DNA of 63,968 bases, counting the filler, from Neolecta irregularis DAH-3 (taxonomy: Eukaryota), in the NCBI GenBank assembly GCA_001929475.1. It is 3 parts of 3 records of this genome, joined end to end, with 100 filler letters (N's around TTAATTAATTAA, not from the genome) between each part and the next. Parts side by side here need not be neighbours in the genome. Positions count along the whole stretch, not along the records: positions 1 to 31,903 come from LXFE01000286.1; positions 32,004 to 60,609 come from LXFE01000287.1; 1 more part is not named here. The stretch is one strand, 5' to 3'. The position numbers were made by a program, and so were the translations under genes. How positions within the stretch are numbered: the first letter of the stretch is position 1; each line of letters starts with the position of its first letter. This document shows, in pieces, positions 1 to 59,567 of this stretch. The notes below the pieces were generated by a model. The model was not told the origin of the DNA. It saw only the letters and a program-made list of their open reading frames with translations, and did not search any database.

Positions 1-3000
1 CCCCGCTCCCCCCGCTTCCCCCGCAGATCCGCACCGTCGCCTTCAACGCCCCGCTCCCGCAGCACTGCCTCGACGATGACGGCACCCCCGCCGCAGACTA
101 CCCCCGCAACAAAATCCGCACCGCCAAATACACACCCCTCACCTTCGTCCCTAAAAATCTCTGGTTCCAGTTCCACAACGTCGCAAACATCTACTTTCTC
201 TTCATCGTCATCCTCCAGATCTTTCCCATCTTTGGCGCCTCAAATCCAGGCCTCGGCGCCTTGCCCCTCATCGTTATTGTCACCGTCACCGCATTCAAAG
301 ATGCCATAGAAGACTGGCGCAGAATGCTCCTAGACATCGAATTAAACAACACTCGCACCTACATCCTCCACTACTGGCACAACGTAAACGTCACAGACGA
401 AAACATCAGCCTCTGGAGACGTGCTAAAAAGGCCACTACCCGCCTCATACGCTGGTTGATCAAAAAGAAAAAAGGCAGAGATCCATACTCACTCGATAGA
501 ACATCAACCCTCCAGTCCCATTTCTCAGACCTCGGCCCCAGACACTCCATCTCCTACAACATGGTCCCCCTCTCAGGTTCAACCCTCAATACTGACCCGT
601 CCCAAAAAATAAAAACCAAATCAGTTATCGATCCCAATAGACAGCCCTCTCACATGGCAAAATTCAAACCAGACCACTGGAAAAGCGTTCGTGTCGGCGA
701 CTTTATCCTCCTCCGCAACAACGACCAGATCCCCGCGGACGTGGTCGTCCTGTCAACCTCAGACGCAGACGGCGCTTGCTTTGTCGAAACAAAAAATTTA
801 GACGGCGAAACAAATCTAAAAGTCCGCCATGCCCTAAGATGTTCCCAGGGCATCCGCACCGCCGCAGACTGCGAACTCGCCACCTTTATCATCGAAAGCG
901 AAGGCCCAAGTCCAAACCTCTACTCTTACAACGGCGTCGCAAAATGGAAAGAAAATGATCCATCCTTCCCAGACGGAATAGACCAAATGGAACCAATCAC
1001 TATCGAATCAATGCTCCTCAGAGGCTCCTCCCTCAGAAACACTGAATGGGTCATTGGCGTCGTCCTCTTTACCGGCACAGAGACAAAAATCATGATGAAC
1101 TCGGGCGATACTCCTAGTAAACGTAGTAAGATCTCTACAGAACTCAACTGGAATGTACGCTTCTCCCCTCTTTTGCCTCCTAACTCTAGGTCATTGTCAA
1201 TTTCATGATCCTCTTTTGCATGTGTTTTGTCTCTGGCATCGTCGAAGGCGTCACATGGAGTAAAGGCACAGGGTCTCAAGGCTTTTTCGAATTCGGATCA
1301 ACAACTGGAAACTCGGCATTGGACGGCTTTGTCACATTCTGGTAATTTTGCCTTCTTCACTGTTAATCGTCAGGACTTGCATCATTCTATTCCAAAATCT
1401 CGTCCCTATTTCCCTCTACATCTCTATTGAAATCATCAAAACTCTACAGGCATTCTTCATCTATAGCGATATCGACATGTACTATGAACCCCTCGATTAC
1501 CCTTGTACCCCAAAATCGTGGAATATTTCGGACGATCTAGGACAAATTGAGTACATCTTTTCAGACAAAACTGGCACACTCACGCAAAATGTCATGGAGT
1601 TTAAAAAATGCACAGTTAATGGTGTTCCCTATGGCGAAGCGTATACAGAAGCAATGGCTGGCATGCAAAAGAGAAAAGGCATCGATGTCGTTAAAGAAGC
1701 CGCACTCGCGGTCGAACGCATTGCACACGCAAGGGAAGAAATGCTTTGCCTGCTGGATAAGCTTTATCAAAATCCCTGGTTTGACGAATCCGCTCTAACG
1801 TTTATTTCACGTCAATTCGTATCAGACCTCCTAGGCGAGGGATCTCCTGAACAGCAAAATGCAAATCGCGATTTTATTTTAGCTTTGGCCTTGTGTCACT
1901 CGGTATTAACTGAACGAGTCTCGGATCATCCAACTCGAATCGCTTTTCATGCTCAAAGTCCCGATGAAGCCGCTCTCGTAGCCACTGCGCGTGATCTAGG
2001 GGTTTCGTTAATTGAACGGACAAAAGATGGCGTGGTGTTGGATGTCTTGGGCCAAACTATAAAAGTCGAGGTTCTCAATCAGCTCGAATTCAATTCATCG
2101 CGAAAACGTATGAGTGTGATTGTTCGTTTACCAGATGGTAAAATCATGTTGTACTGTAAAGGAGCAGACTCGATCATCTATTCCAGACTCGTACCCGGCC
2201 AACAACAAGAATTAAGAGTTAAAACTGCTGCTGATTTAGTGGAATTTGCACAAGAAGGTAATGTCTAGCCTATATGATCATCTGCCAACTCTCTAGGCCT
2301 TCGAACGCTATGTATTGCCAAACGGGAGTTGTCTGAACAAGAGTATTCCTCTTGGTGCGAAGACTACGAAAAGGCTGCTTCGTCTCTAGCCGATCGGGAG
2401 GGAGAGCTCGAGAATGTCTCAAATGCTATAGAGCGTGAGCTCTATTTGATGGGTGGTACAGCCATCGAAGATAAACTGCAAGACGGTGTTCCAGATGCGA
2501 TTCAACATCTTTTAGACGGCGGCATCAAACTTTGGGTCCTTACCGGTGATAAAGTCGAGACTGCCATAAACATTGGTTTTGCTTGCAATCTTTTAGGAAA
2601 TGAGATGAACCTGATCATGCTTCAAATTGATCCAGACGATGGAATCGAACAAGCAAATGCCATGGTTCTAAAGTACCTCGATGAGTACTTTAATATGAAG
2701 GGTACTCCTCAAGAGCTTGAAGAAGCCAAGAATAATCATTCACCGCCTGCACCGACTCATGCTCTCGTTATAGACGGGGACGCGCTCAAACTGGTTCTTG
2801 ACAAGGACGTTGAATCGAAATTTCTCCTCCTTTGCAAGCAGTGCAAAGCCGTTTTGTGTTGTCGTGTTAGTCCGAGTCAAAAAGCCAGCGTGGTGAATAT
2901 GGTCAAGCATGGCTTGGATGTAATGACTTTATCTATCGGAGACGGTATACATCCTCTTATTCGTAATTAACATTAGGCGCCAACGATGTGGCAATGATTC

Positions 3001-4186
3001 AACAAGCCAATGTGGGAGTTGGGATTGTAGGCGAGGAAGGACGGCAAGCAGTCATGTCTGCAGATTACGCAATCGGACAATTTCGGTTTCTCAGTAAACT
3101 TATTCTTGTTCATGGACGATGGTCATATCGAAGAATTGCAGAAACTGTCGCCAATTTCTTTTACAAGAATATGGTTTGGACATTTACACTCTTTTGGTTT
3201 CAGATTTATAACCAGTTTGATGGATCGTTTTTATTTGATTATACGTATGGCTATATCGCTTGCTTTAAAATCTAAGTCTACAGTTATATCCTTCTTTACA
3301 ATTTAGCATTCACTTCTGTCCCTGTCATCGTTATGGGTGTTCTTGACCAGGATGTCAGCGCTAAAATCTCTATGAAAGTACCTCAACTTTACCGTCGAGG
3401 GATTCTTCGTCTAGAATGGACACAAAAGAAATTCTGGAAAGTTTTGGCTGTTTATCTTTTACTAATTTTTCAAGGATATACATGGCAGATGGCTTTTATC
3501 AGTCACTCATCTGTTTCTACTTGCCCTTTCTAATTTTTTACAAGGCTGGCTTCGCGACAATGTCTGGTCGTCAAGTCAATTCTGCAGAGGAAATTGGAGT
3601 GTATGTCGGTTGCATCGCCGTCTTTGTCGTCAACGCATATGTCATGCTTAATCAGCAACGTTGGGATTGGCTATTCATCCTCCTCAACTTCTTGAGCAGT
3701 TTCCTCATCTTTATCTTTACTGGATTTTATTCCCTCTATCCTGGAAACCATGCATTCTATCATACTGCCAGTCATATATTCACTACTATCGATTTTTGGG
3801 CTGTCTTCGTTTTATCTCTGGTCACTTGTCTCCTTCCCCGTTTTACTGCAAAGTATCTTCAAAAGGTCTATTACCCCTTTGACTCAGACATCATTCGCGA
3901 GCAAGTCTGGCTAGGAAAACTTAACGAGAATTCTAGTCAGAACATGAGTATGGAGGAAGTGAATAGGACTCACGATGTATACTTGAATTCAGCGAGAATG
4001 TCTGACCACAGCAAAGATGATCACACATTTGTGTCGTCCAGAGCAGCCAATCATACACATAGCAAAGCGGATTCTAAAAACTCTGCGATAGTTCCTGATA
4101 ACGGGACTTTTGCAAGTTCGCAAACGTATCAGACAGAAGATGGTCCCCTGCATAACAACGCCTCTTCTGAAGCTCTGCACCTATAA
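1..4186 (+). CDS. dnf1: P4-type ATPase phospholipid flippase (Dnf1/Dnf2-like), 5' end truncated by the window, 6 introns
   Basis: Frame is open from base 3 ([12 protein letters not shown]). Motifs: DGETNLK, PISL, DKTGTLT (phospho-Asp), [15 protein letters not shown], and GDGANDV rebuilt across an intron. Introns 1155-1189, 1342-1373, 2258-2296, 2945-2976, 3245-3283, 3437-3474. Confidence 0.95.
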
Positions 4187-5597: not shown

Positions 5598-5684
5598 CGT
5601 CCAGTTCTATTAAGCAATTTGTGAATGATTAGCAGAATAATATCTAAGGCAAAAGTATTGACCAAGTCCGATCTCTTTAACTGA

Positions 5685-7949
5685 TCAGACCAACCCCAAA
5701 AAGATAGTGCTGTATGGCACGTCTTGTCGAACTGTCAGGACGTGTTTTGTTGCCAACACTTACGGATTAACATGCATCACTCTCTTTGACATACGCAAAA
5801 CATGGCAAAGTGCTTGGGAAGCAACGTTCTTATTACTCGTCTGGAATGGGACAAGTTCGGAAAACTCTGCGAGTGGTGACTTGTCATATCGCGATTTATC
5901 TTCAGCAAGTTTCGTCCGCACATATTCAAGGAAGTTTTTGCAGTCATGTTCCATCATTTCTTGGGTTCCTTGCATAACTACAGGCACAAGATCTACATTT
6001 AGCAACCCATATACTGGAAAATAGCACCATCTTGAAAAACTTCGAAATCATCCAATACTACAGCGTCGTCAATTGTCAAATCTGCAACGTTTGAAGTAGG
6101 ATCAGCGGAATCCACTCTTGCAAGACCACCCAATGGCGAGGCAGCCATCTTTGAAGTACGCCCTGAACGTCGACCTTGACCAAGTGGTGTATCAATGTAG
6201 GAAAAGTCTCGAGCATTACTGGTAGATGTAAAACCAGCTGCCGAAACCGAACGGGATTGACCTACTGAATCTAGTCGAGAGCCTGTCATAGTGATGTTCC
6301 ATGGCATAACAATACTTGGAGTTCGATTAAGCGACTCTCCGTCACGTCTTCCTAGTTCGAGATCCTTTGATATATAAGAAAGGAAGACCAGTGAAAAGTA
6401 CATAATTGCCAAGGGGACTGTTGCGATTGTCGTTCTGGTACCCCATACCAATATCGTGATCATCCATCACCTGAGAAAAATGTTCACCACCGCAGCCCAA
6501 GCGCAACTCCTCTGCATTTATGTTGATACCCTCGTCCCGAGTGCGTTTTTTCCCATTTCTCGTAAGTGCATCGTATCCACTGAAAATAAACAGTCTGGTG
6601 AGATTTGGGTGAACGATTTGTCCTCCCCATCCATAAATGTACTTCAGAGCATCATCTTTTGCAGTTAAATTAGCTTGGCGTGCGTCTCTGAGCCCAGTTT
6701 GAGCCTTCATGGCAGAAGAATAATTTTCTCGCCAGTCGAGAAGCTCTCGAGACGGTATTTCAGTTCTAGAATCGACTCTTACTTCCTTCTTGATACGACG
6801 TCGTTTCTGTTGGGGTTGAGCATTTTCTTCGACTTGGCTTTCCCCGAGGGCCATGATATGATCCATCACCGTTGGATTCGTCTCTTTTATTGTTTCTCTA
6901 CTCGACGAGGAACGAGGCGAAAAAGGCTCGCCTTCTAAGAAGCTGTCCATCATCATAGGAACATCGTCAGGATAGTAGGATTCCGTGATCTGAAATCAGT
7001 ATTAGAAAGCAGCACCAGAGAGATCACCTGTGGCACGGCAAATTTTCTTGCTGCTTCAATATGTTCCAGTTTTGCAAGGACAGCTTCATCCTCCTCTGTG
7101 TCTCCGACCTTTTCGATTTCACTCGTTTCAACCTTGCTAGGAAGAACGTTGGGCTTCGTGGAGTTCAATTCTCTGATTAGGCCGTCTGCATCAAACTCGA
7201 AATCCAGTGGCTCCCCTCCAACTAATATATCATCATCGTCGAAGCCACCAAAGTAAGCGCTTCCTCTAGAAATATTAAAGGAGCTATCTATACCGCCATT
7301 GAATGGAATCTCGAGAGAAAGAGGCTGTACAAGAGAAGAGTCTGAGGGGATGCGATCTCTATTTTGGGTGGGAGAGATATCGAGAGATGAGCGCTCACCA
7401 GAGAGATGACCATTGTCATAGATACCGTCCGGTAAAAAGTCTTGAGTGACAAAGTCTACCCCAAGGCCGTATTCCAGAGTGAAAGTTGGATCGTCTTGAA
7501 GCGTAAAATCGATTCTAAAATTAATAGAGCCACTGTCGAACAATACCTCGGTTTAATATTTGGCAAATCAATATCAGATCTGTCTGCAATGGCTGAATAT
7601 TCCCTGTTAAGCTTACTGTGCACATTCGTAACGTCGGCTGCACCAATAAGAGAGAGGATGAGAATAGATGTACTGTATAAGAACCCGCATTGCTGGGAAT
7701 AAATACGGGTCACCCCCACCATTAGATTTGACGATAGCCGGAGTGCAAGAGGTTCCGGAGGTTGGACAATATATTGACATGCTTTGGAGACATCAACGTT
7801 GATAATGTCTCTTTTTTGAATTTTCTTGAAGGACGCCTTACTACCGAGAGTTGCAGCAAGCCTAGTTGATTAGTTGGGATCAAAAATATCTACCAAATGA
7901 TGCTGAAGCCGCCTTTCTGCTTCACAAGAATGTCCTGGGAGTAGAACAT
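5685..7949 (-). CDS. rec8: Meiotic cohesin kleisin Rec8 (Rad21/Rec8 family), 7 introns
   Basis: N-terminus MFYSQDILVKQKGGFSIIW|LAATLGSK...PLALRLSSNLMVGVTRIY resembles fission-yeast Rec8. C-terminal winged helix ASQALCHVLLLATKHVLTVRQDVPYSTI. ExxR separase-type sites (EELR, ELGRR). Confidence 0.92.
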
Positions 7950-8569
7950 TGTAATGGGAAATATTTGACTATGACTAGATATCAAAAGAAAATCCATGCA
8001 AGAAATATATATCTCGTTGAGGAAGTTTGTAGAAAAAATAATAATGGGAACCCTGATTTGTTACTGCTGCGGATTTCCGTACAGACTGAATGATCTTCTT
8101 GCCCTAAAGTCTGTCTGGATCCATATAAATATTTTGCCATCAACAAAATCGCTTATATTATCTTTCCTTCACTAAATCGAATGCTACCGAGAGCATTATG
8201 ATTTGATTTTGGCACGACAACCGAGTGGCATGCCGCTCCCCACCGGAAGACTTCTATATGTAGACTTGTAGGAGATTGCGCACTAGTAAATATCACTTCG
8301 ATATTTTGACGCTGCAACTATGAAAAATTGACGACAAGAACAGATGTGTTGTTGAATAAGGATAGTCCTCTATTTTATGTGCTGTACAGGCTGCATTGTT
8401 CCTTCCGGCCGATAGCATGCGGATACTTGACTGAGATCGCTATTCGAGATAATAGTATGAGGGGAGGAAAGAATATACTGAAGACCAAAGTAGCTTTTAA
8501 TAGTCGGGAGTAAAAGGCACCGAATTAAACTAAGCCTAACCCTAAGTCACGAACTACAACCGAATTTAT

Positions 8570-11500
8570 ATGTCGAATGCACTGGCTGCCGAACATGAAG
8601 ATATCCGCTTGTCCCTACCACTCGAATATCAGAAACAAATACTCAGAGATGTGCGCACCGAAGATGGACTTGTCATTCTGGCCAGAGGATTAGGGCTTCC
8701 GCGAATAATATCAAATCTACTCCATTCTTACGATCGTCCGGGAAATCTTGTGGTCTTGCTCGGCGCGCATTCCAGAGAGGAAGATTGGATTGGAGAGTCC
8801 ATGGCATCAATTGCTTCTGCGACAGATGTAGCGACTAAAGGGCTGCAGATCCTGAATACGGAGTTGACTGGCGTGGAGAAGAGGTACATTGTGCTCTAAA
8901 TGAGTGATTCACAAATTAGAGAGAAACTTTATGCTCAAGGTGGCATGTTTTCAATTACTTCGCGTATTCTGGTAACAGATCTATTGACAAAGCTTCTGGA
9001 TCCTGTGAAGATTACCGGAATAGTCATTATTAGGGCAGAACGGTAAAATACAGCTCGTTTCAGCGTTGATCTCGTAAAGAGTGGTCGCTACTTCAACCGA
9101 AGCTTTCATTCTGCGAATCTTCCGTCAGAATAACAAGGTGTGAATGATTTGGGTCATTTAATTCTTACCTATAATAGGTCGGGTTCATCAAAGCGTTCTC
9201 TGACAACCCCGAGCCTTTCACTACCGGATTTTCTCCGTTGTCAAACATGATGCGGCATCTATTTCTCAGAAAGGTCTATCTCTGGCCAAGGTATCACTCT
9301 CCACAGACCCATTTTCACGATTAGGTACCGCCTTGAAGTTGCCAAATCCCTTGAAAATCGTCGAGCGGAAGTGATCGAACTCGAAGTAAATATTACAGAG
9401 TCAATGCGTGATATTCAAAATGCTATTCTGGAATGCATCGAAGTCTGTCTAGCAGAATTAAAGAGAAGCAATTCACAGGTGGATTTTGAAGAATGGAATA
9501 TCGAATCAGCGTTGCAGTCAGGATTTGAAGCTTCCATCCGACGAGTTTTGGATCCTGTCTGGCATCGTGTGAGCAAGAAGACTCGCCAGATCGTGTCCGA
9601 TCTTACAACTTTGCAGCAAATTCTCCAGTATAAGTCTAAGCTTGGTCACCCGCTGATTATTAAGTTATTTATTAACCTATGATTCCGTCTCATTCAACAA
9701 AGTACTTGATGCTATTCTTGCGACCAACACTCCTGCCCCTGGGTCGACTCGTCAGAACCATTCCCCTTGGTTATTTCTTGATGCTGCAAATATCATCTTC
9801 TCGACAGCAAAACGTCGCATTTTCGGTTCTCTGGAAAACAAGACAGAAACCCTTTCCAACCAAATATCAGAATCAGAAGGCTTGGAAGAATTGCCGAAAT
9901 GGTCAATGCTAGCTGAAGTAATAGATGAGATAGAACATGAATTACATTTTAATCCACCGAGTCCAGGTATGCTCTGTCTTTGAATTTCTTTTTCACTGCC
10001 CAGACTCTGCTAACAACACAATTTTGCTGATGTGCAGCGATGGTCGTACATGTCGTCAAGTGCGACAATTTTTACAAAATATGCAGCCAACGGAGAACGG
10101 GAAACCAGCAAATGCAAAGACAATGATGAGAAGAAAATTGAAGGCATACCGTGAGTGGAAACCCAATTTCGTCAAAATCAAGGATCAACTTTTTAGACAT
10201 GAAGAATCAACTGTCAAACAAGGCATCCAGTTATACTAATACTGAGCTGATTAACCAGTTTCCAGTGGACATCAGAATTATGATCATCGTGGCAAACCAC
10301 CACCCAATAAGCGTCGCCGAGTTCGCGGAGGAGGTACAATAGCAGCTGCATCGTCTACCCACCCTATTAATATAAGGAATACTGCCATTTGCATGGAAGA
10401 TGGTGAAGCGACGTATATACCCATGAAGATAGTGGATTAATCATTGAGACGGTTGGATGACTTTCTGGGAAACGATGACATCGTTGCGAAGGAAGAAGTA
10501 GCAGTGGATCTTCTCGAACACATCGAAGATTTCTTCGAATTATACGATTATGATGAACTTGTCGTCATCCTTCCTTATGACGGGGATATGGATGACCGAG
10601 CATTAGAAGAATTGCGGCCAAGGTTTATCGTCATGTACGAACCTGAACCGTCTTTCATCCGACGTGTAGAGGTATCTTTCAAGTCTGCAACAACATTCAT
10701 CCTAGGTTTACCGCTCATCTCACCAAAATCGAAGCCTCCGAGTATATTACATGTATTACGGCAGTTCGGTTGAGGAGCAACGCTATCTATCAGCTGTCCG
10801 CCGCGAGAAAGATGCATTTACTCGTCTTATCCGGGAAAAAGGCGTTAGTGATTTCATAAAATCTGCTTTTTAAGCGGTAGAACATGGCGATAGTCCTAAC
10901 TCAAGACGGAGCATCAATGGACGATCCCCAGAACATATTTCTGCGGACAATTAATACAAGAATAGCCGGTGGCGGTCGAATAACAGCAGCTTCTGAGCCT
11001 CCTCGGGTTTGCGTCGACCTGCGAGAATTTCGGTCATCATTGCCATCACTTCTTCATGGACGAAACTTGACCATTGTGCCTTGCATGCTCACTGTCGGTG
11101 ATTATATCATATCTCCGACTATGTGTATTGAAAGGAAATCAGTGAAAGATTTAATTTCTTCGTTTCGGGATGGTAGGTTGTATACCCAATGTGAGACTAT
11201 GTTACTGCACTACAAAACACCACTCTTGTTAATTGAATTTGATCAGAACAAGAGTTTTAACCTTGAGGCATACATAATTCTGTTCGCACAGCTGACAAGA
11301 AGCCATTCGCAGATATGACATCATCGATAGGATCTACTGATCTTCAAACAAAACTCGTCTTGCTTACTCTAGCATTCCCACGAATTAAGATTATCTGGTC
11401 ATCCAGCCCCTATGCAACTGCAGAAATATTCGAAGAGCTAAAAGTACATCTACTTAGGCGTAGTCAACTGACCGCAGAAAAACCATGACGAACCCAATCC

Positions 11501-11750
11501 AGTCAAAGCAGTTAGTATAGGTCTTGAAGAAGGCGAAGAACCCACGAATTCATACAATCAAGCGCCCCAAGACTTTCTCCGTTCGATGCCAGCGATTAGT
11601 TCCAAGAATTATAAAAATTTAATGCTGGAGGTTGAAAATTTACGAACCCTGAGCAATATGTCACAAAGACAGATTCAAAATATTGTGGGATTAGAAGCTG
11701 GGCGCGCAGTGTACAAATTTCTCAACAAAGATTTCCGAGGTCTTTCGTAG
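8570..11750 (+). CDS. rad16: XPF/Rad16/Rad1 structure-specific DNA repair endonuclease, 12 introns
   Basis: N-terminal [17 protein letters not shown] helicase-like region. ERCC4 nuclease motifs [29 protein letters not shown]-terminal HhH region. Confidence 0.95.
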
Positions 11751-13025: not shown

Positions 13026-13070
13026 GACATTTTAGACCCTGAAGAATATAGATATTTCAAATTCGATAAT

Positions 13071-16000
13071 ATGCTCCGATCAATACCATTTCCGTCTTTA
13101 CTATCAACGAATTCGAACAAAGCTATCCCGATATCAGTGTCATTGCCGTTATTGAATAAGAGAGAGTGGACACACGATGAAATTTGCCGAGCCTGGGCAA
13201 CGATCTTGTGCGGGATCGTTGGGGAAACCACGACTGTTGTGTTTCGCTGCGACGAAAACATGTATTGTATAAAAGCGGGAGAAATTAATCATGTCGACGC
13301 CGAAGAACCCCCGACAGCGATCTTTGTTTGGATCTTCTGTTTCGATAATTTCTGACTATAGTCATCATATGCCCCATCATTGTTTCTAGCAAATCACCAT
13401 TATCCGATGTCACTCGAGGTATTGGTTAAACACAATATTGGAGATTCTAATCATTTAGCCACTCACTTTAGCTATCTTTGTATCCAAGGAGGCGATCAAA
13501 TTATGTTCATCGGCTGCTCTTTTGGACCACATATCAGCTCGTAATATCCTATACCAAATGTCTCATTTTCTCATTTCTGATTCGCCTAATGAGATTCCCT
13601 CACCTAGTTTGTCTATTTTGAATCATGATCCGAAATCGTACAGTAAAGGCCTATGTCTTCACGGCCTTTTCGAAGATGTTGCGAAGAAACACTGCAACAC
13701 AATTGCACTCGAGTTCAACGATACAACGAGGATTTCATACTTCGATCTCAATCGGCTCTCCACCAATCTAGCGAACATTCTCATTCACTCTTATGCTGTC
13801 ACTTTAGGAAGCGTTATTCCGTTATTATTCAATCAGTCTATAGAATTTTATATTTCTGTTCTGGCAGTACTCAAAGCTGGAGCAGCATGGTGTCCCTTGT
13901 CGCCGTCCTTTCCTCAAGAGCGTTTATCATTTGTGATAGAGGATGTTTCCGCCAATATATGTATTACGAGTTCTCAGTATACAACTAGAATCAACATCCC
14001 TGTTCTCGAAATCGACAAGGTTGACTTTACCTATGGTTTTTCTGAATCTCCGCCGATAACTGTGCAGCCCGATGCACTTGCATACATCATTTACACTTCG
14101 GGAAGTACCGGAAACCCGAAAGGTGTACGAATAACACATTCGAACGCAGTTCATGCGATATTAGCTCATCATTGTTTCTTCGAAGAGTTCAGCCAAGGCA
14201 GATTCCTCCAATTCGCTTCTCCGACGTTTGATATTTCGGTTTTTGAATTATTCATCACATGGAGTCTCGGGTGGACATTAATAGCTCATACTCGATCGCA
14301 TTTATTATCGCGACTATATGATATTGTTATCAAGTCTCGTATATCGCACCTCGAATTGACACCTACAGTTACAACGACTCTGTTGCGAACTCTGGAAAAT
14401 ACTCAAGTCAAAATGCTTCTTACGATTGGGGAACAGCTTACCGATGAAGTCGTTAAGATTTGCTCAGATGCAAATGTTCGCTTATACAACGCGTACGGAC
14501 CAACTGAAACTGCAATGCATTGTTCAATAGCTTCAAATTTTACCTCCAACACGAAAGTGATCAACATCGGTGTACCCCTTTCAACTTGTTCAGCATACAT
14601 AATGTCCCCTACAGAAGAACGATTGCTTCCACGTAACTGGGTTGGAGAACTTGTCATTGGTGGCCCCCAAGTCAGTGCCGGCTACACTAATTACCAGTCG
14701 CATGCATTCTTCACTCACAGAAGTCAGCGGTTGTATCGAACTGGCGACCGAGCTCGCTTTCTCGAGAATGGAACTATTGAGTTTCTCGGTCGACTCCATG
14801 GCGATTCACAATTCAAAATTTCTGGACAGCGAGTCGAGCTTGGAGAAATAGAGTGTGTTGTTCGTGATATCACCGAGAATATTGTGATGTTTATCGAGGG
14901 GACCTTAGTTTGTTTTGTGTTGGAGAAGTTGACTGAAGCAGATCAGTATGCAAGGAAGAAATTGCTGGATTACATGATCCCAGTATTTCTAAAAATTGAT
15001 CGATTTCCTCAGTGTGAATCCGGGAAGCTAGATCGCAAGCGCTTGATTGAATTCTATAAAGATAAACAAATATTTCAGGAAAGTGATGATTCGAACTGGG
15101 ACGATCGATTGAGACTAATGCGCAAAATTATCTCTGAGGTATCAGGAGTTCCTCAAAATCGTATATCTAAGGATTCTTCATTCATTAGCCTTGGTATCGA
15201 TTCGCTCAAGGCAATCCTAGTTGTTCAAAAGTTGCAAAATGAGTTGGGAGAAGCATTTAATGTGGCGCAAATTCTCACCGCTTCAAACGTCTACAATCTC
15301 CGAAATTGCTCTACCATCGTTGCGAGTCCTACCCGAATTTTGTATTCGGATCTTTCGTTACAAGTTAAGTTATTGATTGATGACTCTAACGTGGTTGATG
15401 TTCTACCTGCTACGATGGTACAGGAAGCAATGATTTCTGAGAGCCTTAAGGATTCGAAGAAATATTACAATTGGGTTAGACTAGATATCGGACTTGGTGC
15501 TTCTGTTCCAGATTTCAAAGAATCTTGGAAAGCTATTGTCAATGCTAATGAAGTGCTAAGAACTGGGTTTACCGTTTGTCCTAGTACAGTCAATTCACCT
15601 AGTCACTACATGCAAGTTATTTATTCATCGGATCGATCAAATTATGAAGAAATATCATGCGGATATGTCGAATTGGACAATTTATATCGAGATCATCGGG
15701 ATGAACAACTCCTTACACTGGAGAATATGCATCTTCCAGCATTGAGCATTCGCATTTTCACTTCTCCCCTATCACGTACTGCATCACTAATGATTCACCA
15801 CGCTATCTACGACGGTTGGGCAATGGAGATCATTCTCAATGACATAAACAGATATATTACCACTCGAAACATAGTGCAACGCCCTCAATTCAGACGAGTT
15901 GTTGAGCTTGAGTACGCTATCAATACAGGTATCTCCCGCGATTACTGGAAAAGCTACCTTCACGAAGCCGAGTTTCATGCATTTCCACGTCTTTCGAGAT

Positions 16001-31903: not shown

Positions 31904-32003
31904 NNNNNNNNNNNNNNNNNNNNNNNNNNNNNNNNNNNNNNNNNNNNTTAATTAATTAANNNNNNNNNNNNNNNNNNNNNNNNNNNNNNNNNNNNNNNNN
32001 NNN
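31904..32003. other. Scaffold gap with artificial six-frame-stop linker TTAATTAATTAA
   Basis: 44 N + TTAATTAATTAA + 44 N. Confidence 0.97.
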
Positions 32004-44369: not shown

Positions 44370-46067
44370 TCAACGACTTCTTCGACGATTGAAAGCTCCT
44401 CGTAATACCGATATGGTCCTTTCAACATCTCTCTTTGCCATGCCGAGTCCCACGCAGAGCCTCAAGCTCGAGCGAACGGGCCACATTTCCTGACCGACGC
44501 GTTTGGTTCTAGTAATGAGGATACCATTATTGATACACTAGTAATCAGAGAAACAAAGTAATGAGGGAGTCAACCTCATCAACAATATCTTGGAGAATCT
44601 TATCCTCTTCAGGTACTGGTTCCTTGAGAGAAATGAGAACCATCGGACTGTCACTATCACCAGATACAGAGATTCCGTCAATCCTATTTAACCCAGTTCG
44701 CATGACTTTCGTTAGTTCACGCAGTGTCTTAATCATCTCCCCATCATCTTTTTTGAGAATTTCGAGTGCACCAATACTAACAGCGCCTAGCATAGCAGGC
44801 AAGGCGGCAGAAAAGACGTAGCTAGGCGAGTTGATCCGTTGATGCGCAACAACTTCTTCGCTACCAGCACAAAATCCACCAGCAGAAGAAATAGCATGAG
44901 CATATGATCCAATAAGAATATCAATATCTGAAGCATGGCAGCCCCAATGCTCACTAATTCCTCGACCAGTCCGTCCTAATGTTCCGAAAGAAATCGATTC
45001 ATCGAGAATTAACCGGTATTTAAATTTTCGTTTGAGCTCAAGGATCTTTGGAAGGTCCAAGATTTTACCAGTCGACTCAAATAGTCCTTCAGTAACAATA
45101 AAGCGGCGGGTAAGTGGCTTCTTGGAGAATTCTCTGCGAACCTGATCTAGAACTAGTTCAAGGGAATCGACATCGTTATGTTCATACCAAAGGATAGTAG
45201 ATCGAGATATAGAGAGGCCTTTCTGTATTGGAAAAGAGATCCCCTTATCACTAATGTTTCAGTTGAACGGACATCGGGAATTCATACGCTACTATAATGT
45301 CACCCCGTTTAGCAAAACTCGGAATAACACTGCTGACTGTGCTGTAGGCTTGAGCATATATTATCGAAGCGGGTACGTCCAAAAAGGTTGCGAGTTCTTT
45401 TTCGAGGTTTACGTGCACATCTTGGGTTCCGTAAAATCCTGGGGGTCCACACGCCCCAACCCCGTACGTCCTTAGAGCGGAAACTGCTCTTTCACGAAGA
45501 GCACAAGAGGAATGTAAATTGAGGAAGTTGAATGTTGATGCTGAGAGTACCGGTTTCGGATGGCTTTGGATCCTGACTTTGGGTCCAGCGGGTCTGAACA
45601 TGAACAGCAGGACAATCCGGGAAATACCCTATGATCACTGGGATTTTGTCCAGCTCAGTTTGATCCTGTCGAGAAAGTGGAGTTACTAGAGATTCCGGTT
45701 GCCATTCGTCCACCAGATCATCGATTTCCTGTCCCTTAGAGTATACACGAATATGAATATGTACTTGTTGGGTAAATTTAACGTAGTTTTTGTCAGGTCG
45801 ATAGCGTTTGCTCAAGAGATACCGTAGAGTAAAGAAGACGAGAAATAGCTCGATGATACTCCGGATTGGATCGTCCTGATAACTTGACTTTATATAACGC
45901 ATAAGGATCTGAGACCCGGGTATCAGGTGGAATTTTTCGACGAGAAGGTTCACATATATAGATGGGTCCAGAGTCATAACTGCCGCTTCATACACGTGGA
46001 AGTAGGGATATAGAAAGTGTAATGCTTGTCGATGGTGAAGTTGAGCGATTGGATTTTGAGAGGTCAT
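44370..46067 (-). CDS. lcb1: Serine palmitoyltransferase subunit Lcb1, 4 introns (start could be 45977)
   Basis: YIKSSYQDDPIRS; DLVDEWQPESLV; YGVGACGPPGFYGTQDVH; LDESISFGTLGRTGRG; YVFSAALPAML. Confidence 0.95.
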
Positions 46068-46609
46068 TCCCGTAACCGAGACTTTTAGCGTCTCAACACC
46101 AGTCGTAAATATAGCCTGAGTGAGGTTGAGAGATCCACAGGCCTTTAAAATCCTTGAGGTGCCTTTGGCTGTTTAACGGAGATAGTGTGAGAGACGTGTA
46201 ATCAAAAGGGAAGTTAAATATGCATATCGCGAGATCTCTGAATAAACTTGAAAATATAGAAAAAGAAAAAATGCCTACAGAGGGTAAAAGAAATCTCTTT
46301 TTCTTTGATATTTCCTGCTTTTGGTTAATAGTAAGCAAATCCATAGATCTTGGCCCAATCGGGGCAATTTGGCCTTTAGCCGTTCTTGCTGGAGTCAGAA
46401 AGAACCACATCTATTGTGTAATGTTCTCAAGTTCATATATACGACAGGTTGGGAGAATTTCAATATGTTAGGGGAGTAAAACGCAGGCTGCAATTGTATA
46501 GTTTTGCAGACTTCAATAAAAAAAACCAAGAAAAACCATTGTTAGATTCCTTTGCTGTATGAATAGAGCATTATTCACCAGTCATACACGCAATCAGCTA
46601 CAGGGCTAC

Positions 46610-47987: not shown

Positions 47988-49179
47988 TGATCTTACTGTG
48001 TCAGAACAATGGTTCTATGACAATGGCCCGAAGAACCCGGCATCTATTCTGATATTTTTGAAATGAAAAGGTTGTTTGAGAAAATTGCCTCCAGAGTTTG
48101 AAGTCGCGAGAAAAATACTAAATAGATCGATTCAAGCAAAGCAAGTGCTTCGTTATGGAGATATGAAAGAGGCCTCCTACATTTCGAACAATCTGACATG
48201 AAATTTTACTTTATTATTGCCCGACCAGACTTATTCTTTCAATGATGTGAGCTTGTTGCTTGGCGCAATGTCATAACCGGCTAGGTCATTCACTGGATCT
48301 AGAGGATCAAGAATGGACCTATTTTTTAAGGCGAAAAGTACACTTCTATGGTTATGATGTTCGTTCCGACGGTATTCATTAAGACTATCTCGCGGTTTCA
48401 ATCGCGACACTCATTATTTTCATGTCTCTTTCTCTTGAGGCTAGAATATTTCAAGAGGTAGCGCGGAACCAAAGATATGTGTTCGTTCTCGGGAAATGAC
48501 ACGAGTTTCATGAAAGATTGTCTAAATTTAGGCAACGCAGATCGTCTTCGCGAAATCCCGCAGAATCACAAGCTGACGAATTGCGCATTCCTCTCGAAAC
48601 GAGCTGTCCATATCACTGATTGATAGTGAATCAACTGTTCTATGGCTGTGAGTCAGGAGAAGGCGTTATCAAACACTCAGAAAAGCCTCAGCGAGCGTGA
48701 ATATCAATTTGACGAACAGTCGAACATGTCAGTTTATCATGTGCCAATGAAACTCTATCCTTCACCGGCCCCGGCCACAGATGGGTTGTCCATCGATCTG
48801 ATGCTGGGAAAACTCATAATATTTGCCTCAGATATGGCACTTGTCGGGAAAGGGCAACGAATCTTAGAATATGCTCGAAGTCTAGTATTATTGAGCTTAT
48901 TGTGCACTGACCCATCGTGTCGCAGCCTTAGTTACGCAAACCGAGAGTCTCGATCCTCCGAGGAAGATCTTCGACCGATCGGCCAATTCTCCTAAGATGG
49001 TTCATTGATGCCTGCCTAACACACTACTAGGCTCTTTGCTATAAATTCGACCAATTGCCATATCTAGTTTTCCTTCGTTCTCTGCTTCTCGGTATTTTTG
49101 AACATATCATATTTCTTGATATCCCTCTATTCAGTCGGTTCTTATGCTGCCAAATACTTACTGACCCCCAGGAATTACA

Positions 49180-50334: not shown

Positions 50335-51180
50335 CTACCAAACAAAGGGAATAAGTGCATTCCTTTGAGGATAGTCCTTGAATGTTCTCTTGAACCACTG
50401 ATGATTGGCTCTTGCTCTAGGAACAAGAACCGCAAGCAGAGCAACAACAAATACCCAGATAGGCGAACACTGTCTCCCTGCGGCAATCCCCAGTCCAATC
50501 CACTCGACAATCTCGCAAAAGTAGTTAGGGCAGGAGATGTACTGATATAACCCACCATATGGTATTGAATAGTCCTTCTTCCCCCCAGTTTTTCGAAGTG
50601 AAAAGAGAATTTCATCGTGGTATGTATTCCCTGCAAATCCCAATGTCCATAGCAATAAACCTGGAATAAAGTAACCGTCAGCCCGGCCGAGGCTCGAGAG
50701 CCACCAACCAATTGTAGAACCATTGTGAAAGTTGAATGTCATCGCCCCTAACCAAACGTAAAGATGAATGGGTTTTAGAGACTCTGCTCGGAACAGCGGT
50801 GCCACTAATGATCTGTGTGTATAATGTACCAAAAAAGCCAAGCCGATAAGCATGTTTCCGGTATTTGATAAATGGGGCGTTTGAGAAAAGTAATCGACAA
50901 TAAACATTATTGGTGATATAATCTCCATGGAGACCCAAGCAAATTTCCCTAAAGGGTTATTCGAAATGGCATTGTCGAGGATCATACCGGGAAGATTGAA
51001 CTTTGAGTCTTTCGTTGAGAAACGACCGTGATTGGCGTTTACAAGTAGAAACGCGGGAACAAGAACAGGAAAGGCCTGAAGAAAAATAGAGCGGGATGCA
51101 AAGGCCTTGTTGCAAAAGAGGGCTTCGTCCTGGGTGAGGGCATACCAGAGCAGTGTAACATACTGCTCGAGATGATACAT
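50335..51180 (-). CDS. 3-oxo-5-alpha-steroid 4-dehydrogenase / steroid 5-alpha reductase family protein
   Basis: HGRFS; AWVSMEI; HYTHRS; GNTYHDEILFSLR; YSIPYGGLYQYISCPNYFCEIVEW; ALIPFVW. Confidence 0.93.
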   Translation of the reverse strand: MYHLEQYVTLLWYALTQDEALFCNKAFASRSIFLQAFPVLVPAFLLVNANHGRFSTKDSKFNLPGMILDNAISNNPLGKFAWVSMEIISPIMFIVDYFSQTPHLSNTGNMLIGLAFLVHYTHRSLVAPLFRAESLKPIHLYVWLGAMTFNFHNGSTIGWWLSSLGRADGYFIPGLLLWTLGFAGNTYHDEILFSLRKTGGKKDYSIPYGGLYQYISCPNYFCEIVEWIGLGIAAGRQCSPIWVFVVALLAVLVPRARANHQWFKRTFKDYPQRNALIPFVW

Positions 51181-51347: not shown

Positions 51348-52941
<1,594 letters not shown>

Positions 52942-52995
52942 ACAAAAGTACTGTAAATCTTGTAGCATAAATATGCGATTTGCTTGGTTCAATGA

Positions 52996-53682: not shown

Positions 53683-54373
53683 ATGGCTGGTGCCTTTAAT
53701 TATGTTCTTCTCAACATCATCCGGATGGTGTCGATTACAGGATTGATTCTTTCTATTGTAACTAGTATAGTTATCATTGGGAAATCTGGGTCTAAGGGAA
53801 TGGAGTCGGTGTGTTGCTTTTTAAAGAAAGCGGTTAACTGTATAGGTTCGACAAGATTTTTTTGCAATGTTTAAACACTTGTTTTTTATAGCGCTTGATG
53901 CGTTGCTATTGCTTAGCGAACTGGAAGTGCCGTGGAGAGGGATATTGAACGACGCGCTTCCGCTGTTGGGACCACAGGCAAATCTCGTCGGGCTTGGGTT
54001 GTTTGAGGCAAGTTTGGGGGCCCAAGAGAGGGGAAGGCTAATTGACCAGGGTGCGCTGGGATTCGTCTACCTCGGAGAAACGAGATGTACTGTGGGATAT
54101 CTCGGTCGACTTGGGCCCGAATTTTTCAAGCTGCTTGTATCGACGGGATGCCTGCTTTTGATCGCAGGATGCCTTGTATTGATGATGGTAAGGGCTAGCA
54201 CATATGCTTGCTGATGCCCACAGAACATTCTTGTTGCTCTGAGAGTCAAGAAGATTCCGATTCGCGATATCCGCCGCCGAGGGGCCGCTGCAGAAGAGTC
54301 GAGTAAGTTTGGTGGTCTGGAAAAGGCACGGGGTTTGGAAATCAGCGCGCCAATGCATCATGTATACGGATGA
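53683..54373 (+). CDS. Fungal multi-pass membrane protein of unknown function, 3 introns
   Basis: About four hydrophobic segments (YVLLNIIRMVSITGLIL; LLLLSELE; LPLLGP; LLLIAGCLVLMM). Exons join in phase and end EISAPMHHVYG*. Confidence 0.7.
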
Positions 54374-54746: not shown

Positions 54747-56850
54747 ATGTCGCCCAGCGCAAGACTCTTGGCAGTGCTCGCATGCGTGTTGCCCGCAGCA
54801 ATTGCGGCTCCAGCTCCAGTCATAAAGACAAGTCCCCAGCTGGGCTCGCCGTTTAATTCTCCTTGCCACTCCCTGCTGTACTGCCCCGGCGACTTTCTCA
54901 AGGAGATCCAGTTGACCTATGGCCGTGTAAATGACTCCAAGGCCTTTGTCGATATGCCCTCAAAGAAACCCGCGGCGGAAATCTTGCAATTGTGGGCCCA
55001 GCAAAAAGACAAGTCTTACGAGGCCGTTGCAAGTTTTCTCGAGGCAAATTTCGGAAACCCGGGAGATGACATTGTTCAAGCTCAGTTAGACTCGACTGTC
55101 AAAACTCCAGAGTGGATCACGTCTCTCGCAAACAAATTCATCGCAGGGTTCGTAGACCAAGCCTTCAAGTAAGTTGGTCCTTCAAATATCAACCAACGGG
55201 CAGTTATTGGAGTAGTCTCCTCCGCGTATACAAAAAGCCTGACTACTTTTGCGATGAATGTGAAACCTCAGCCATCCCTCTTCCATATCCAGGTATAGTC
55301 GCTGGAGCGCGTTTCAGAGAAACGTTTGTTGGATTTGCAAATGTCTGGTTAACGCTCTAGGTACTATTGGGATTCTTACTTTACTATCCTTGGGCTTCTG
55401 CTGTCTGGTTACACCGAGCAGGCATGGAATCAGTTGCAAAACTTCATGTTCCTCATCGATCAATATGGATTTATCCCAAATGGTGCGCGAGCGTATTACT
55501 CAAACCGATCTCAGCCGCCCCTGTTTTGCGAAATGGTATACGCATATTACTCATTTACTACCGACACGAATTTTCTGGCCCAAGCCTTTCCTTATATCGA
55601 GCGAGAAATGGAATTTTGGAGGACAAACACAACGGTCGATATTACTGTAAACAACAAAGTACACACCTTGAATCGATATGTTGTCTATTCATCGGATCCA
55701 CGGCCGGAGAGTTATAAAGAAGAGTGAATTTCGGCATGTTTTGAATGTAGGTTGACCCTCTAGCTTTGACTGCGCCAATAACAAGACTTTTTATTGGCCC
55801 AATAACACCCTTTTCATGGACAATGTACCGGTTCTCACCGATATAGAAAAGACGGATCTCTATGCAGAGTTAGCAACCACAGCTGAAACCGGAATGGACT
55901 TTTCCTCTCGCTTCCTCAACTCTCCATTCCGCCAAGGGACAAACGCTTGGGTTCTCAGAACTCTGACCACCAGATCCATCAGTACTTTAGTTCTTGTACA
56001 GGCCAGTTCTAATAGCATAGTCCCTGTTGATCTCAATGCGATTCTTTATAAAGCAGAGATGCGACTTTCAAACTTTGCTGCACTCCTGGGCATTCCAGAG
56101 AAACAAAAGAGTTGGTGTTCAATTGCCGAACTTCGAAACACCGCTATGAATGCATTGCTCTACGACGATTTCGAGAAGATATATCATGATTACAATTATG
56201 AGGAAAATGCGCAGATACGTCGTTATGCTGTGAGTTCGTGGACAGTGGATTGGGCGGGTATCATACGTCCTTCTGGCAAGCCCAGTCCAAGCGATCTTGA
56301 CACAATTTGGGCACCAATTAAACGTCGAACAGAGGAATACGTTGGAGGCCTTCCAACAACAGATATTGAATCTGGTCTTCAAGTACATATCTAATACTCT
56401 CCTATCCATTCTGACGTACAGTGGGATAAGTCAAATGTTTGGGCTCCGAACGTTTGCTTTGTTATCATGGGACTACTAGACACCAAAAATGATGCACTCT
56501 TGACCCTCGCGTTGCAAGTAGCCCAGGACTTTATAGATGCTGCTTTTTGCTCGTGGATTGATACACAAGGTGATCCAGCAAAGTCGTTCCAATCTACACC
56601 CGGATCTCAGGCCGCTGTAAATGGTGATTTTTTCGAAAAGTACAACGCAGAAAACATCAATATCGCAGGCGGAGGCGGCGAATACGGTGTTCAGGTATAC
56701 CTCCTTCTTGACTTGGACAATTAATCATCATAGATTGGATTCGCATGGACCAACGGCTTTATTCTCTGGCTTGTACATCAGTTTGGAGACAAACTACAAG
56801 CTGCTACATGTTCCACGCCTGTCCCGGGAAGAGGTTATCGCAAGATCTAA
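54747..56850 (+). CDS. Secreted alpha,alpha-trehalase (GH37), 6 introns
   Basis: Signal peptide; DSKAFVDMP; GARFRETYYWDSY; GFIPNGARAYYSNRSQPP; PRPESY; AETGMDFSSR; QWD..NVWAP; GGGGEYGVQIGFAWTNG. Confidence 0.93.
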
Positions 56851-57127
56851 ATTATCGGTGATTTACATTCGAATGATTCAGTTTATTATCTTTCTCTTTT
56901 GTTCTATTGTTTGAGCAAAGCAGTGTGATAGAATGTTTTTGCATTTGTGATTGGGATTGTTTTGTCTAGAAAATAGAAAAAAAGAATCACATATTTTCCA
57001 GATCAGGGACTTGAGAGGCTTTAGAGATGCATTGAGCAGCTCAGTGGCTTGCGAGGGTAAGTTGAGCCAGATTTGGTATACAGAAATAGCTTCTCGAAAC
57101 ATACAACGTCCCAATTGCCTATATATA

Positions 57128-59567
57128 TCACGTGACACATGCCACGGCCTTCAATGCATCAAGAGAAATCTCGCTAGCCCACTTGATAATCGCAAGTTCA
57201 TCTTCCGTACATCCAATGATACCCTTGCGAATATATTTCCGAATAAACCATCCGATTCCCCTGGCAAGTCGTTGATGGCCCTTCAGTTTCCCAACAATTT
57301 CAACAATTGCCAATACATTTCGTTTCGGTGAATATTTCTGACTGTGAAGAAACATATCCTGAAACATTACTTCAAGAAACGTCTTGGTATTATCTCGCAG
57401 TGCTTGAAATGTAAGAACCTATTTCATTAGTGTTATCAAGATAGAAAGAAAGAAAATCCCTTGAGAATGACAAGATTGATGGCTTGATTGGCAATTAGAA
57501 ATCCGTACAATTTCGCCAGGTTTGCAATTTTCCGCAAGGAAACCGTTTCATTCTGTCCATTAATGCCGCTGCCGCCCTCGTCGCCGATATCTTCACCTAA
57601 ATTTCTAAAGAAATCCCACAGTCTAAATTGAAAAGTGAGCCGAAATGATCGGTACTGCGAACATAAGCGCATGGAAATGAACGCATAGAAGGGGTTGTAA
57701 GATTTTTCGTTGCCGCAGCAATGTATTAATACTCGTGGTATTTCTTGCTGTTGGGCCTTTTTCAAACCAAGTTTTGAAATCCTGTCACAAGCATCAATAT
57801 AATCCTGTGTTCATTAGATTTTGTCAAGAGAAAGCTTAATGGAAGTACCTCACTACTCATAATTGCAATAAATATCATTCGGCGAACATCAGTGTTCATA
57901 CGCTGCGATTTCGCCAGTTCGGTAAGTTTTTCAGAATCATCTTCCAGTATCACAATGTCATCGTTTTCTCGATTATAAAGACCGCCAGTCCACGAAGCTC
58001 CTACTAGCCACCATTTCCCCTTTGTTTCTGAGGAGCGTATGTCGGATAGTGACACACGTAGTGGTTCAGCTGTTTGACTGTTTTTATAAGTAATTAGCCC
58101 TCCGAGAAATTTCTTCATGCGAGAGGTTGCTTCTGAGGCTGCAATTCCAGCGCTATCACCAGCTTTCACCCGATTATTTTTCAAATTAAGGATCGTTTCA
58201 ACCATGAATTTTGTACGAAAACTAGGAGTTAAAAATGGTTCCGATGAGAGTCGATGATTACCTCATACATGTTGGGTCTTGTTTCGAAATCCTGGTTTGC
58301 ATCAGAATAACGATTTCTTTCAAGGAAGATGGATCGTAATGTCTCATTTGTAAACCGGAACCTAATTTATTAACGGAAAGAAAAGAAAGCGATACTTGCT
58401 TCGGACAATTTTCAATAATAACTCTGTGTTTACCTCGGACAAATGGTTCAGTAAGGATCGAATGATATCGTATAATAACGTACACCCGACAACTTGAAAA
58501 TTGTACAACTCACATAACAAAACAATGATATTTGAGCATTCCTTCGCGGATTGTTCAGCGGTTTGAGTTTGAATGTCTGTATCATAAAACTTGTCGAATT
58601 GTTCAACGAGTGTTTGAACAAAATAAGCTGCAAAGGAAACACCGATACTTCGGTACAAAGCGGCGATTAATGCAGCGTGAAGAATGACAAAGGCTTCAAG
58701 CAAATGGGAATGTGAAGATATAATCGTTATTATAAGTGAAGTAAGATTCGAGGTCAGGATTTGTCTTGGATTCGAGCGATATAAAGCCTCGATTTCAGTG
58801 ATGATGTGAGCTAGATTTGCTTCAGATAAGCGATTGAGGAGACCCTTGAGTTGTCTTCGTAGACGTATTGTGTCCTCACTCTCGAGTGGTGTGTTTAATG
58901 CTTTGTGCACCGAGGGAGGAATATATTTCGCGCCGGATGGGATAGCAGGTTGATATATAGATGGTCTTAATGGCTTTGCGGGCTCCGACTGTGGTTTTCG
59001 AAGCTCATCCAGACCTTCCAGTAGGGCTATCTCGTTAGTCAACGCAGTATTGACCTTTCACTCACCATCCAAACCATCTTCCACAAATTTATTGCTAGAA
59101 GAAATGTTTTTTATATTCAGTTTTCGTTCCAGATGAGCGATCTTTGAATCTTCTTGTGCTAGTGCATCCTCAATAGCTTTATCAGAGACTCTATCGGTCA
59201 TAGAGCTAGTAGCCAATGCTATGGCATTATCTCTGGATTTGTTGAGAATAGATTTCACAACCGGCAGATCTGATTTCTTTCGCTGTTGCAAATTTATCTC
59301 GGAAAAATCTAGTCTTTGTGGTATATCGTAATCACTATCATTTTCAGACTTGCGTTTCTTTTGGTTAGATGTGAATGTAGATTGAATTACCCTGGATATA
59401 GAGTTTCTGACCTGTCTCTGTTGGGAAACTGATACACGACACGACTTGCGATTCAGTAATTCATCTTGATTTTTTCGATTTGTGCCTATAGAACCAAGAC
59501 CTAACTCATCTCTGAGATTCTTGGGAAGTCTGGTAATGGTTTTGGGATATGCTTTGCGCTGCTTCAT
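57128..59567 (-). CDS. sgd1: Sgd1/NOM1 nucleolar MIF4G+MA3 domain protein, 5 introns
   Basis: KYIPPS; RRQLKGLLNRLSEAN; ELYNFQVV; RTKFMVETI.NLKNN; KGKWWLVGASW; QRMNTDVRR.IF; EKSYNPFY. Confidence 0.93.

Follow-up and report, generated by a model that had tools for sequence, protein, structure and literature searches.

Compact introns and probable GC, GA and GG donor sites in a 64-kb window of the Neolecta irregularis genome

The introns of one 64-kb stretch of nuclear DNA from Neolecta irregularis DAH-3, an ascomycete of the Taphrinomycotina, were curated and compared with protein homologues; this whole stretch, which consists of three joined contigs, is referred to below as the window. The curated set comprises 89 introns in 18 gene models, located between positions 1155 and 59390 and corresponding to approximately 2.0 introns per kb of coding sequence. 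Six of these introns (approximately 7%), which lie in conserved genes with core functions in the cell, begin with a dinucleotide other than GT, and the tally of 83 GT, four GC, one GA and one GG agrees with the original prediction for this DNA, according to which all four bases occur at donor position +2. The usual requirement for U at +2, where C is rarely tolerated, is therefore observed by 83 of the 89 introns, from which the four GC, one GA and one GG donors depart. Comparison of the predicted proteins with their homologues shows that excision of exactly the segments starting with GC, GA or GG restores conserved protein sequence, which the GT alternatives do not. The explanation that is regarded as best, and as probable, is that these are compact U2-type introns of a lineage that has relaxed its need for U at donor position +2.

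Introns were called from the DNA and from protein homology only. A dynamic-programming gene finder with terms for codon usage, donor, branch, acceptor and length was trained iteratively on the window, and a penalty was charged on non-GT donors. Because this gene finder is blind to in-frame, stop-free introns (e.g. 51873-51911 in a glutathione reductase gene and 55982-56020 in a trehalase gene) and over-calls at gene ends, the intron list was curated by hand. Junctions were tested against approximately 84-149 homologues per gene for the main genes, against solved structures and against Pfam profile coordinates. Additionally, four N. irregularis DAH-3 GenBank proteins, namely rad16/XPF, Sgd1, trehalase and a non-ribosomal peptide synthetase (NRPS), were mapped to the window letter for letter. 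The three contigs (31903, 28606 and 3259 bases) are separated by spacers at 31904-32003 and 60610-60709, each made up of 12 bases between two runs of 44 N, and features are not to be read across them. As expected of U2-type introns, excision generally gives an open frame and a conserved protein: 17 of the 18 models are free of internal stops, the exception being a partial MRS2-like model at a contig end (3 stops), and 35 of the 89 junctions (30 GT, three GC, one GA and one GG) were checked by homologues, structures or Pfam coordinates.

Non-GT donors in conserved genes

The single GA-AG intron (3437-3474, + strand, 38 nt) lies in a Dnf1-type P4-ATPase (flippase) gene, and its junction is exact relative to the structure 6lcp_A. 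The upstream frame aligns to this chain up to approximately residue 1198 (...EWTQKKFW) and the downstream frame from residue 1199, without a gap. A tryptophan codon is split as TG/G, and only one of the four equivalent placements of the intron has both G at +1 and an AG end. The only GT-AG alternative that links both frames, 3513-3544, converts a conserved transmembrane segment into unrelated residues.

Two of the GC-AG introns can be compared directly with the GT introns of the corresponding GenBank models. In the XPF/rad16 nuclease gene, the intron at 11268-11302 (+, 35 nt) outscores the GenBank GT model (11254-11291) in 99 of 99 homologues, by a mean of 12.3 bits, and its excision restores a 16-residue stretch that varies at few positions across these homologues. 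Similarly, in a condensation domain of the NRPS gene, the intron at 22805-22840 (+, 36 nt) outscores the GenBank GT model (22820-22855) in 148 of 149 homologues (mean +6.8 bits). Its removal takes out an in-frame TGA and restores the motif FGxVxSGR, which is also present in two other condensation domains of this NRPS, and 42 homologues match across the junction without a gap.

The Sgd1/NOM1-like MIF4G gene contains both a GC-AG intron (58362-58399, -, 38 nt) and the GG-AG intron (57419-57459, -, 41 nt). The former sets a 100-nt exon in the right frame together with a corrected GT-AG partner (58222-58261, -, 40 nt), at whose junction no homologue has an indel, and the pair is better than the GenBank pair (58362-58395 and 58222-58268) in 84 of 84 homologues, by a mean of 35.5 bits. 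The GG-AG intron itself contains no GT, and it is better than the GT alternative in 83 of 84 homologues, with one tie (mean +8.0 bits). The 12 nt retained in this model code for V-I-L-K; these residues close a 4-residue gap in a block that has no other gap, and they fit the (I/V)(L/F)K pattern conserved among the homologues. The sixth case is a probable GC-AG intron, in frame, in a DUF7598 gene (54008-54049, +, 42 nt), with donor GCAAGT and a branch motif 8 nt from its end. Its flanking exons match Pfam positions 38-84 and 89-130, and reading through the segment splits the match into two stretches. This continuity of the profile is suggestive of an intron, with weaker support than for the other five, although the segment is perhaps a real loop insertion.

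The four mapped GenBank models are those of rad16/XPF (protein P0001, 8570-11747, +, 12 introns, GT model), Sgd1 (59567-57131, -, 6 introns), trehalase (P0241, 54747-56847, +, 6 introns) and NRPS (5512 residues, 13071-30314, +, 16 introns). All 40 of their introns are GT-AG, and four of the 40 are displaced from a non-GT donor. Consequently, three of the four proteins carry wrong residues in four places (one each in XPF/rad16 and the siderophore-type NRPS, and two in Sgd1, of which one is a 33-residue stretch in the wrong frame), because the annotation passed over GC or GG donors in favour of adjacent GT-AG introns. The nucleotides discarded by the GT models encode, in frame, the residues SFNLE, the SGR motif, the 33-residue MIF4G segment and VILK, as judged from 84-149 homologues. 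Direct comparison with homologues shows that gene models restricted to GT-AG are wrong at the displaced sites, and it is likely that the flippase annotation is affected too.

Intron architecture and donor recognition

Intron lengths range from 31 to 146 nt with a median of 37 nt, and 86 of the 89 are within 31-45 nt, in agreement with the roughly 90 introns, mostly of this size, that had been predicted. The mean is 37.2 nt (standard deviation 3.5) once a single doubtful call of 146 nt is dropped, and the introns are unusually uniform as well as unusually short. This sole long call (48885-49030, +) is in a serine/threonine-rich gene without homologues, and probably conceals a short exon or a wrong start. 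All 89 introns have G at +1 and end in AG, which is partly due to the construction of the search. Of the other donor positions, +2 is T in 83 introns, +3 is A in 68, +5 is G in 36 and +6 is T in 45. Position +3 carries 0.78 bit of information, and each of the positions +4 to +8 carries at most 0.22 bit, such that the donor amounts to little more than G-T-A; the proposed weakness of the donor is borne out beyond +3. The G at +5, seen in only 36 of 89 donors here, is much stronger in fission yeast and Cryptococcus. Among the degenerate donors that the original prediction cited, GTTTGG (13326), GTGTGC (28541) and GTACCG (31092 and 39911) are present in the curated set, and GTTGTT opens none of the 89 introns.

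Of the 89 introns, 64 contain a strict yTrAy motif whose A lies 5-12 nt from the 3' end, compared with 544 of all 7780 AG sites in the window (7.0%). The distance from the branch A to the 3' end is 7.9 nt (standard deviation 1.6), and an unsupervised motif search of intron interiors returned yT(A/G/c)Ay, i.e. the same motif as the branch site. Pyrimidines make up a fraction of 0.57 of the 15 nt that precede the AG and of 0.53 of whole introns, and the longest pyrimidine run has a median of 5. All four NAG acceptors are in use (42 TAG, 28 CAG, 13 AAG and 6 GAG), and the shares of GAG and AAG exceed those of yeasts; of the GAG acceptors, just one (25287-25327) belongs to the homology-checked set. 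Therefore, the short branch-to-AG distance, the near absence of a polypyrimidine tract and the use of every NAG acceptor are all confirmed features of this intron set. With respect to U12-type introns, GTATC opens four of the 89 donor hexamers (GTATCA once and GTATCT three times), but none continues as GTATCC, so none fits the U12 donor [AG]TATCCTT. The branch-region motif is yTrAy, and all six non-GT donors begin with GC, GA or GG. U12-type introns, with an [AG]TATCCTT donor and a TCCTTAAC branch site, are not evident in the curated set, no dedicated search for either motif having been made.

The six non-GT donor hexamers are GAAAGT, GCAAGT (twice), GCATAC, GCAGGC and GGATTT, and in each of them T in place of the base at +2 would make a good GT donor. 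Position +3 is A in all six, and each of these introns contains a strict branch motif whose A lies 7-9 nt from the end. Their mean match to the other eight positions of CAG/GnAAGT is 5.83, versus 4.18 for GT donors (Mann-Whitney P=0.0014), and the difference persists when only homology-checked junctions are considered (5.60 versus 4.50, P=0.03). GC-AG introns elsewhere show the same kind of compensation, i.e. a better match at the remaining donor positions. The better consensus match of the non-GT donors suggests continued donor recognition by small nuclear RNA (snRNA) pairing, which therefore appears still to define the 5' end. This does not sit well with the earlier proposal that the introns are defined mainly by length and branch position. 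No Rfam family reaches threshold in the window, and no snRNA gene was seen there. Early on, the U at +2 pairs with U1, and in the catalytic core it is in contact with U6; in yeast, splicing tends to stall after the first step when this position is A. Routine use of GA and GG would therefore imply some loosening of pairing or of proofreading.

In the proposed mechanism, the major spliceosome would remove introns of approximately 37 nt that have G at +1, usually T at +2, usually A at +3, and yTrAy 5-12 nt before the AG. A mismatch at +2 could be tolerated where the rest of the donor pairs well with U1 and U6, and a branch site at a fixed, short distance may contribute to this tolerance. The tight length distribution and the fixed branch-to-AG spacing would leave little room for error, and the non-GT rate would be raised genome-wide. 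A more specific version, which is put forward tentatively and may well not hold, is that the donor rule of this lineage is G-N-A rather than G-U. Under this rule, 5-7% of introns genome-wide would be GC, GA or GG introns, with GA and GG together accounting for 1-2%; this would be the first such case in fungi, independent of those in the copepod and tunicates, and would be tied to introns of approximately 37 nt and to a change in U1/U6 pairing, snRNA modification or proofreading. If so, several hundred reference gene models would be mis-spliced.

Frequency, alternative explanations and known systems

The GT-AG share in fungal annotations is given as 98.7%, which corresponds to a mean non-GT rate of 1.3%, in the accessible text of one survey (PMC7072748). 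Likewise, the accessible text on a hand-curated Ganoderma annotation reports GC-AG at 1.85%, GA-AG at 0.038% and GG-AG at 0.022%, with non-GT introns at 2.44% in total (PMC11590231), and human values of 0.006% for GA and 0.014% for GG are reported elsewhere (PMC5714493). The binomial probability of at least six non-GT introns among 89 is 0.0011 at 1.3% and 0.022 at 2.44%, and that of at least two GA or GG introns is 0.0014 at 0.06%. The expectation that six non-GT donors in about 90 exceed the usual rate thus holds overall and for GA and GG together, but not for GC alone, for which four of 89 is not clearly unusual at the Ganoderma rate of 1.85% (P=0.084). The surprise rests on the GA and GG donors (2 of 89), and not on an excess of GC.

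Several points weigh against the reading of a relaxed +2 position. We infer from protein conservation only that the non-GT donors are spliced in vivo, and 54 of the 89 introns were accepted on reading-frame continuity and the intron model only. The gene-finder search demanded an AG acceptor and a start with G (or AT), and other classes were invisible to it. The compensation test is biased, because the finder penalised non-GT donors and weak ones would have been missed. When the first two bases are ignored, candidates scoring at least 8 in the window number 43 for GC, 91 for GA and 56 for GG, versus 108 for GT; the intron score alone separates real from chance non-GT introns poorly, and therefore each non-GT call depends on its homology test. 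In the GG case, an in-frame GT donor at 57471, 12 nt upstream, is used by GenBank (57419-57471), and a variant with a 4-residue deletion is possible. With respect to frequency, the three well-tested GC introns alone give P=0.23 at 1.85%, and five rather than six non-GT donors would give P=0.067 at 2.44%. Finally, this is a single 64-kb window, which was flagged after the fact.

One alternative is that splicing is of the ordinary fungal type and that the non-GT introns are real, with a genome-wide rate near 1-2.5% and an enrichment in the window by sampling luck. The non-significant GC count, the choice of the window after inspection and a compensation pattern like that of ordinary GC-AG introns are all compatible with this. 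It is nevertheless considered unlikely, since two GA or GG donors in 89 are not expected at approximately 0.06% (P=0.0014; PMC11590231), and since four of the 40 introns in the mapped GenBank models hide a non-GT donor. The GenBank models could also represent real splicing, with Neolecta proteins that have merely diverged at these spots. The genome paper, as far as its text is accessible, describes the annotation as supported by RNA sequencing for 99.4% of genes (PMC5309816), GT-AG was annotated at all four mapped sites, and the GG and GT alternatives differ by 12 nt in frame. However, the discarded nucleotides encode residues conserved in 84-149 homologues, which would not be expected of intronic or out-of-frame sequence, and no GT model of the flippase retains the conserved helix; divergence of this kind is very improbable.

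Assembly errors, or minor alleles from field fruiting bodies, that place a wrong base at +2 are rated marginally lower still. In favour of this, only one base separates each case from a good GT donor, and the 14.5-Mb assembly (44% GC) is fragmented, with an N50 of 16 kb, and was derived from wild fruiting bodies, from which RNA was also sequenced, according to the accessible text (PMC5309816). Against it, the same source gives a coverage of 199-fold, no frame-breaking errors were seen in the 17 complete gene models, and six hits on one intron position among approximately 64,000 bases are far beyond random error. The least credible explanation, which can be nearly dismissed, is that RNA editing restores U at +2 before splicing. 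A theoretical route of this kind is mentioned for GA-AG sites by Frey and Pucker in the text available (PMC7072748). However, three different bases would need conversion to U, and no such activity is known from fungi.

In comparison to ordinary GC-AG U2-type introns, those in the window have the same G at +1, the same AG end and, together with C at +2, a closer fit to the consensus at the remaining donor positions (GCAAGT twice, and A at +3 in all). Their branch motif and length are also those of the neighbouring GT introns. They differ in being only 35-42 nt long and in their frequency, which is 3-4 of 89 here, as opposed to approximately 1% in most species and 1.85% in the curated fungus according to the accessible texts (PMC7072748, PMC11590231).

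Precedents for GA and GG donors are found in animals, and therefore the earlier suggestion of an undescribed system was too strong. Approximately 12% of introns in the copepod Eurytemora affinis are reported to have GA or GG donors, and restriction of the donors to GT and GC makes its gene models fail (PMC5714493); in the Neolecta window, models restricted to GT-AG are wrong at the displaced sites. In Oikopleura dioica, GA-AG introns are frequent, with AG upstream and A downstream of the site. Both species, as described in the accessible text, resemble Neolecta in having G at +1, A or G at +2, a normal AG end and an A after the dinucleotide (PMC7072748). In contrast, the share in the Neolecta window is 2 of 89 rather than 12%, and the animal cases are supported by RNA, whereas the fungal one is predicted here from DNA and homology. 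Additionally, the introns of E. affinis have been described as gained recently, whereas at least the Neolecta flippase, Sgd1 and XPF introns are in conserved gene regions. Fritillaria borealis and related tunicates likewise represent a lineage whose major spliceosome accepts a wider range of terminal dinucleotides; 95% of Fritillaria introns are said to be non-canonical in the accessible text, and changes in or duplication of U2AF and altered m6A methylation of U1/U6 are proposed as causes (PMC13326754). The Neolecta window differs in being 93% GT, with every call ending in AG, as required by the search.

Among fungi, Cryptococcus, Pneumocystis and fission yeast share with Neolecta a high intron density, short introns and a branch site near the 3' end. 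Neolecta is reported to be intron-rich, with 4202 introns in 1211 orthologues (PMC7940399), and its mean of approximately 37 nt in the window is smaller than the 63 bp of C. neoformans, which is called 'relatively short' in the accessible text (PMC8476143). Overall, the descriptive statements of the original prediction are confirmed apart from the hexamer GTTGTT, and its interpretation is partly supported. The introns in the window probably represent ordinary spliceosomal introns in a compact form, with a weak donor and a relaxed +2 position, which is new for fungi and has precedents in animals. The literature search found nothing on Neolecta splice sites or intron lengths, nor on fungal lineages with GA or GG donors, a provisional result with coverage short of most subscription journals and supplements. 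The main text of the genome paper contains neither 'intron' nor 'splic' (PMC5309816), and tables of introns or splice sites for this species may be found in its supplements or in those of the splice-site surveys.

The near-invariant U at donor +2 is among the firmest rules of splicing, and lineages that bend it reveal which spliceosome contacts are dispensable. The lineages known to do so belong to two animal groups, and a fungal case, with 37-nt introns in a small genome, would be an independent natural experiment and would offer a compact comparative system next to fission yeast and Pneumocystis. Furthermore, work on fungal multicellularity and on the gain and loss of introns draws on Neolecta proteins, and misplacement of a few percent of junctions would bias both.

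Other genes, introns and rejected candidates

The flippase gene is represented by its 3' part (1-4186, +), with six introns. Two of its GT-AG introns, 1342-1373 and 2945-2976 (+, 32 nt each), had been given as examples in the original prediction, and both exist: the 6lcp_A alignment begins 2 nt past the acceptor of the first, and chain coordinates are continuous across the second (837-1060, then 1058-1148). The third example, 30052-30082 (+, GT-AG, 31 nt), is also retained but is the least certain. It lies at the 3' end of the NRPS gene and belongs to a two-intron model together with 30155-30188 (34 nt), in which 31 and 34 nt are removed and a 72-nt exon is kept; in contrast, GenBank removes the 137 nt from 30052 to 30188 as one intron. 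Homologue votes were 44 for two introns and 16 for one intron, with 89 ties. The NRPS gene as a whole (13071-30317, +, approximately 5500 residues) has 16-17 introns, and seven of its junctions are spanned without gaps in 26-146 homologues. It encodes repeated adenylation, thiolation and condensation domains with two terminal T-C pairs, and presumably resembles ferrichrome-type siderophore synthetases.

The XPF/rad16 gene (8570-11750, +) has 12 introns, and 10 of the 12 junctions are free of indels in 40 homologues. In a variable part of XPF, a GC candidate at 10223-10258 (+) competes with the annotated GT intron at 10230-10265; homologues are indecisive and the candidate was not counted. In the MRS2-like gene, the GT-AG intron at 31092-31125 (+, 34 nt, donor GTACCG) separates matches to Pfam MRS2-like positions 27-109 and 108-179 across a frame change, and that at 31338-31371 (+, 34 nt) separates profile positions 108-179 and 179-241. 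The Sgd1-like gene extends over 57128-59567 (-) and has six introns.

The secreted-type trehalase gene (54747-56850, +) has six GT-AG introns, and all six junctions are clean relative to 10 homologues, one of which is 74% identical. This homologue is P0242, a JGI metagenome protein whose 74% identity applies to the queried exon and whose length is within one residue of that of the whole trehalase (625 versus 624), whereas other fungal homologues are approximately 30% identical; it is probably from an unsequenced relative of Neolecta. A GC candidate at 55044-55085 was refuted by this close homologue. A metagenome scan with P0242 gave 42 loci, with best-segment identities of 32-41% in 40 of them and of 47% and 54% in two short partial matches, and these were not used. 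No relative was found in a metagenome scan with the Sgd1 protein.

Several introns are multiples of three and free of stops, among them 51873-51911 (+), 55982-56020 (+), 7638-7673 (-) and 45729-45764 (-). Reading through such introns gives an intact, longer protein, and inspection based on open reading frames overlooks them. The glutathione reductase intron (51873-51911, GT-AG, 39 nt) coincides exactly with a 13-residue insertion relative to 5u1o_A, and is the only one confirmed among 21 listed in-frame, stop-free candidates scoring at least 7.5, most of which are due to chance. Candidates at 20622-20660 and 20770-20817 in the NRPS gene and at 50949-50987 in an SDH gene are outside the confirmed set. 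The probable GT-AG intron at 7638-7673 (36 nt, in frame), called by reading of the sequence, is in a gene that we take to be Rad21/Rec8-like from its N-terminal motif. An 'AT' donor candidate in the same gene (7975-8012, -) was rejected, as it merely extends the gene past its evident start, and a GC candidate at 46082-46115 (-) probably overreaches the start of Lcb1.

The remaining rejected candidates are within a transposase-like region near the end of the window. Three with 'AT' donors (63863-63897, 62681-62716 and 63662-63691, all -) are inside the decayed transposase with its in-frame stops, and a GC candidate (63662-63702, -) is in the same region. The transposase-like frame itself (61505-63673, -) is interrupted by three in-frame stops (62687-62689, 62243-62245 and 61913-61915). 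Its start is zinc-finger-like and its C-terminal end dimerisation-like, a weak Rua1_C match is its only Pfam hit, and it is presumably a decayed element of the hAT family.

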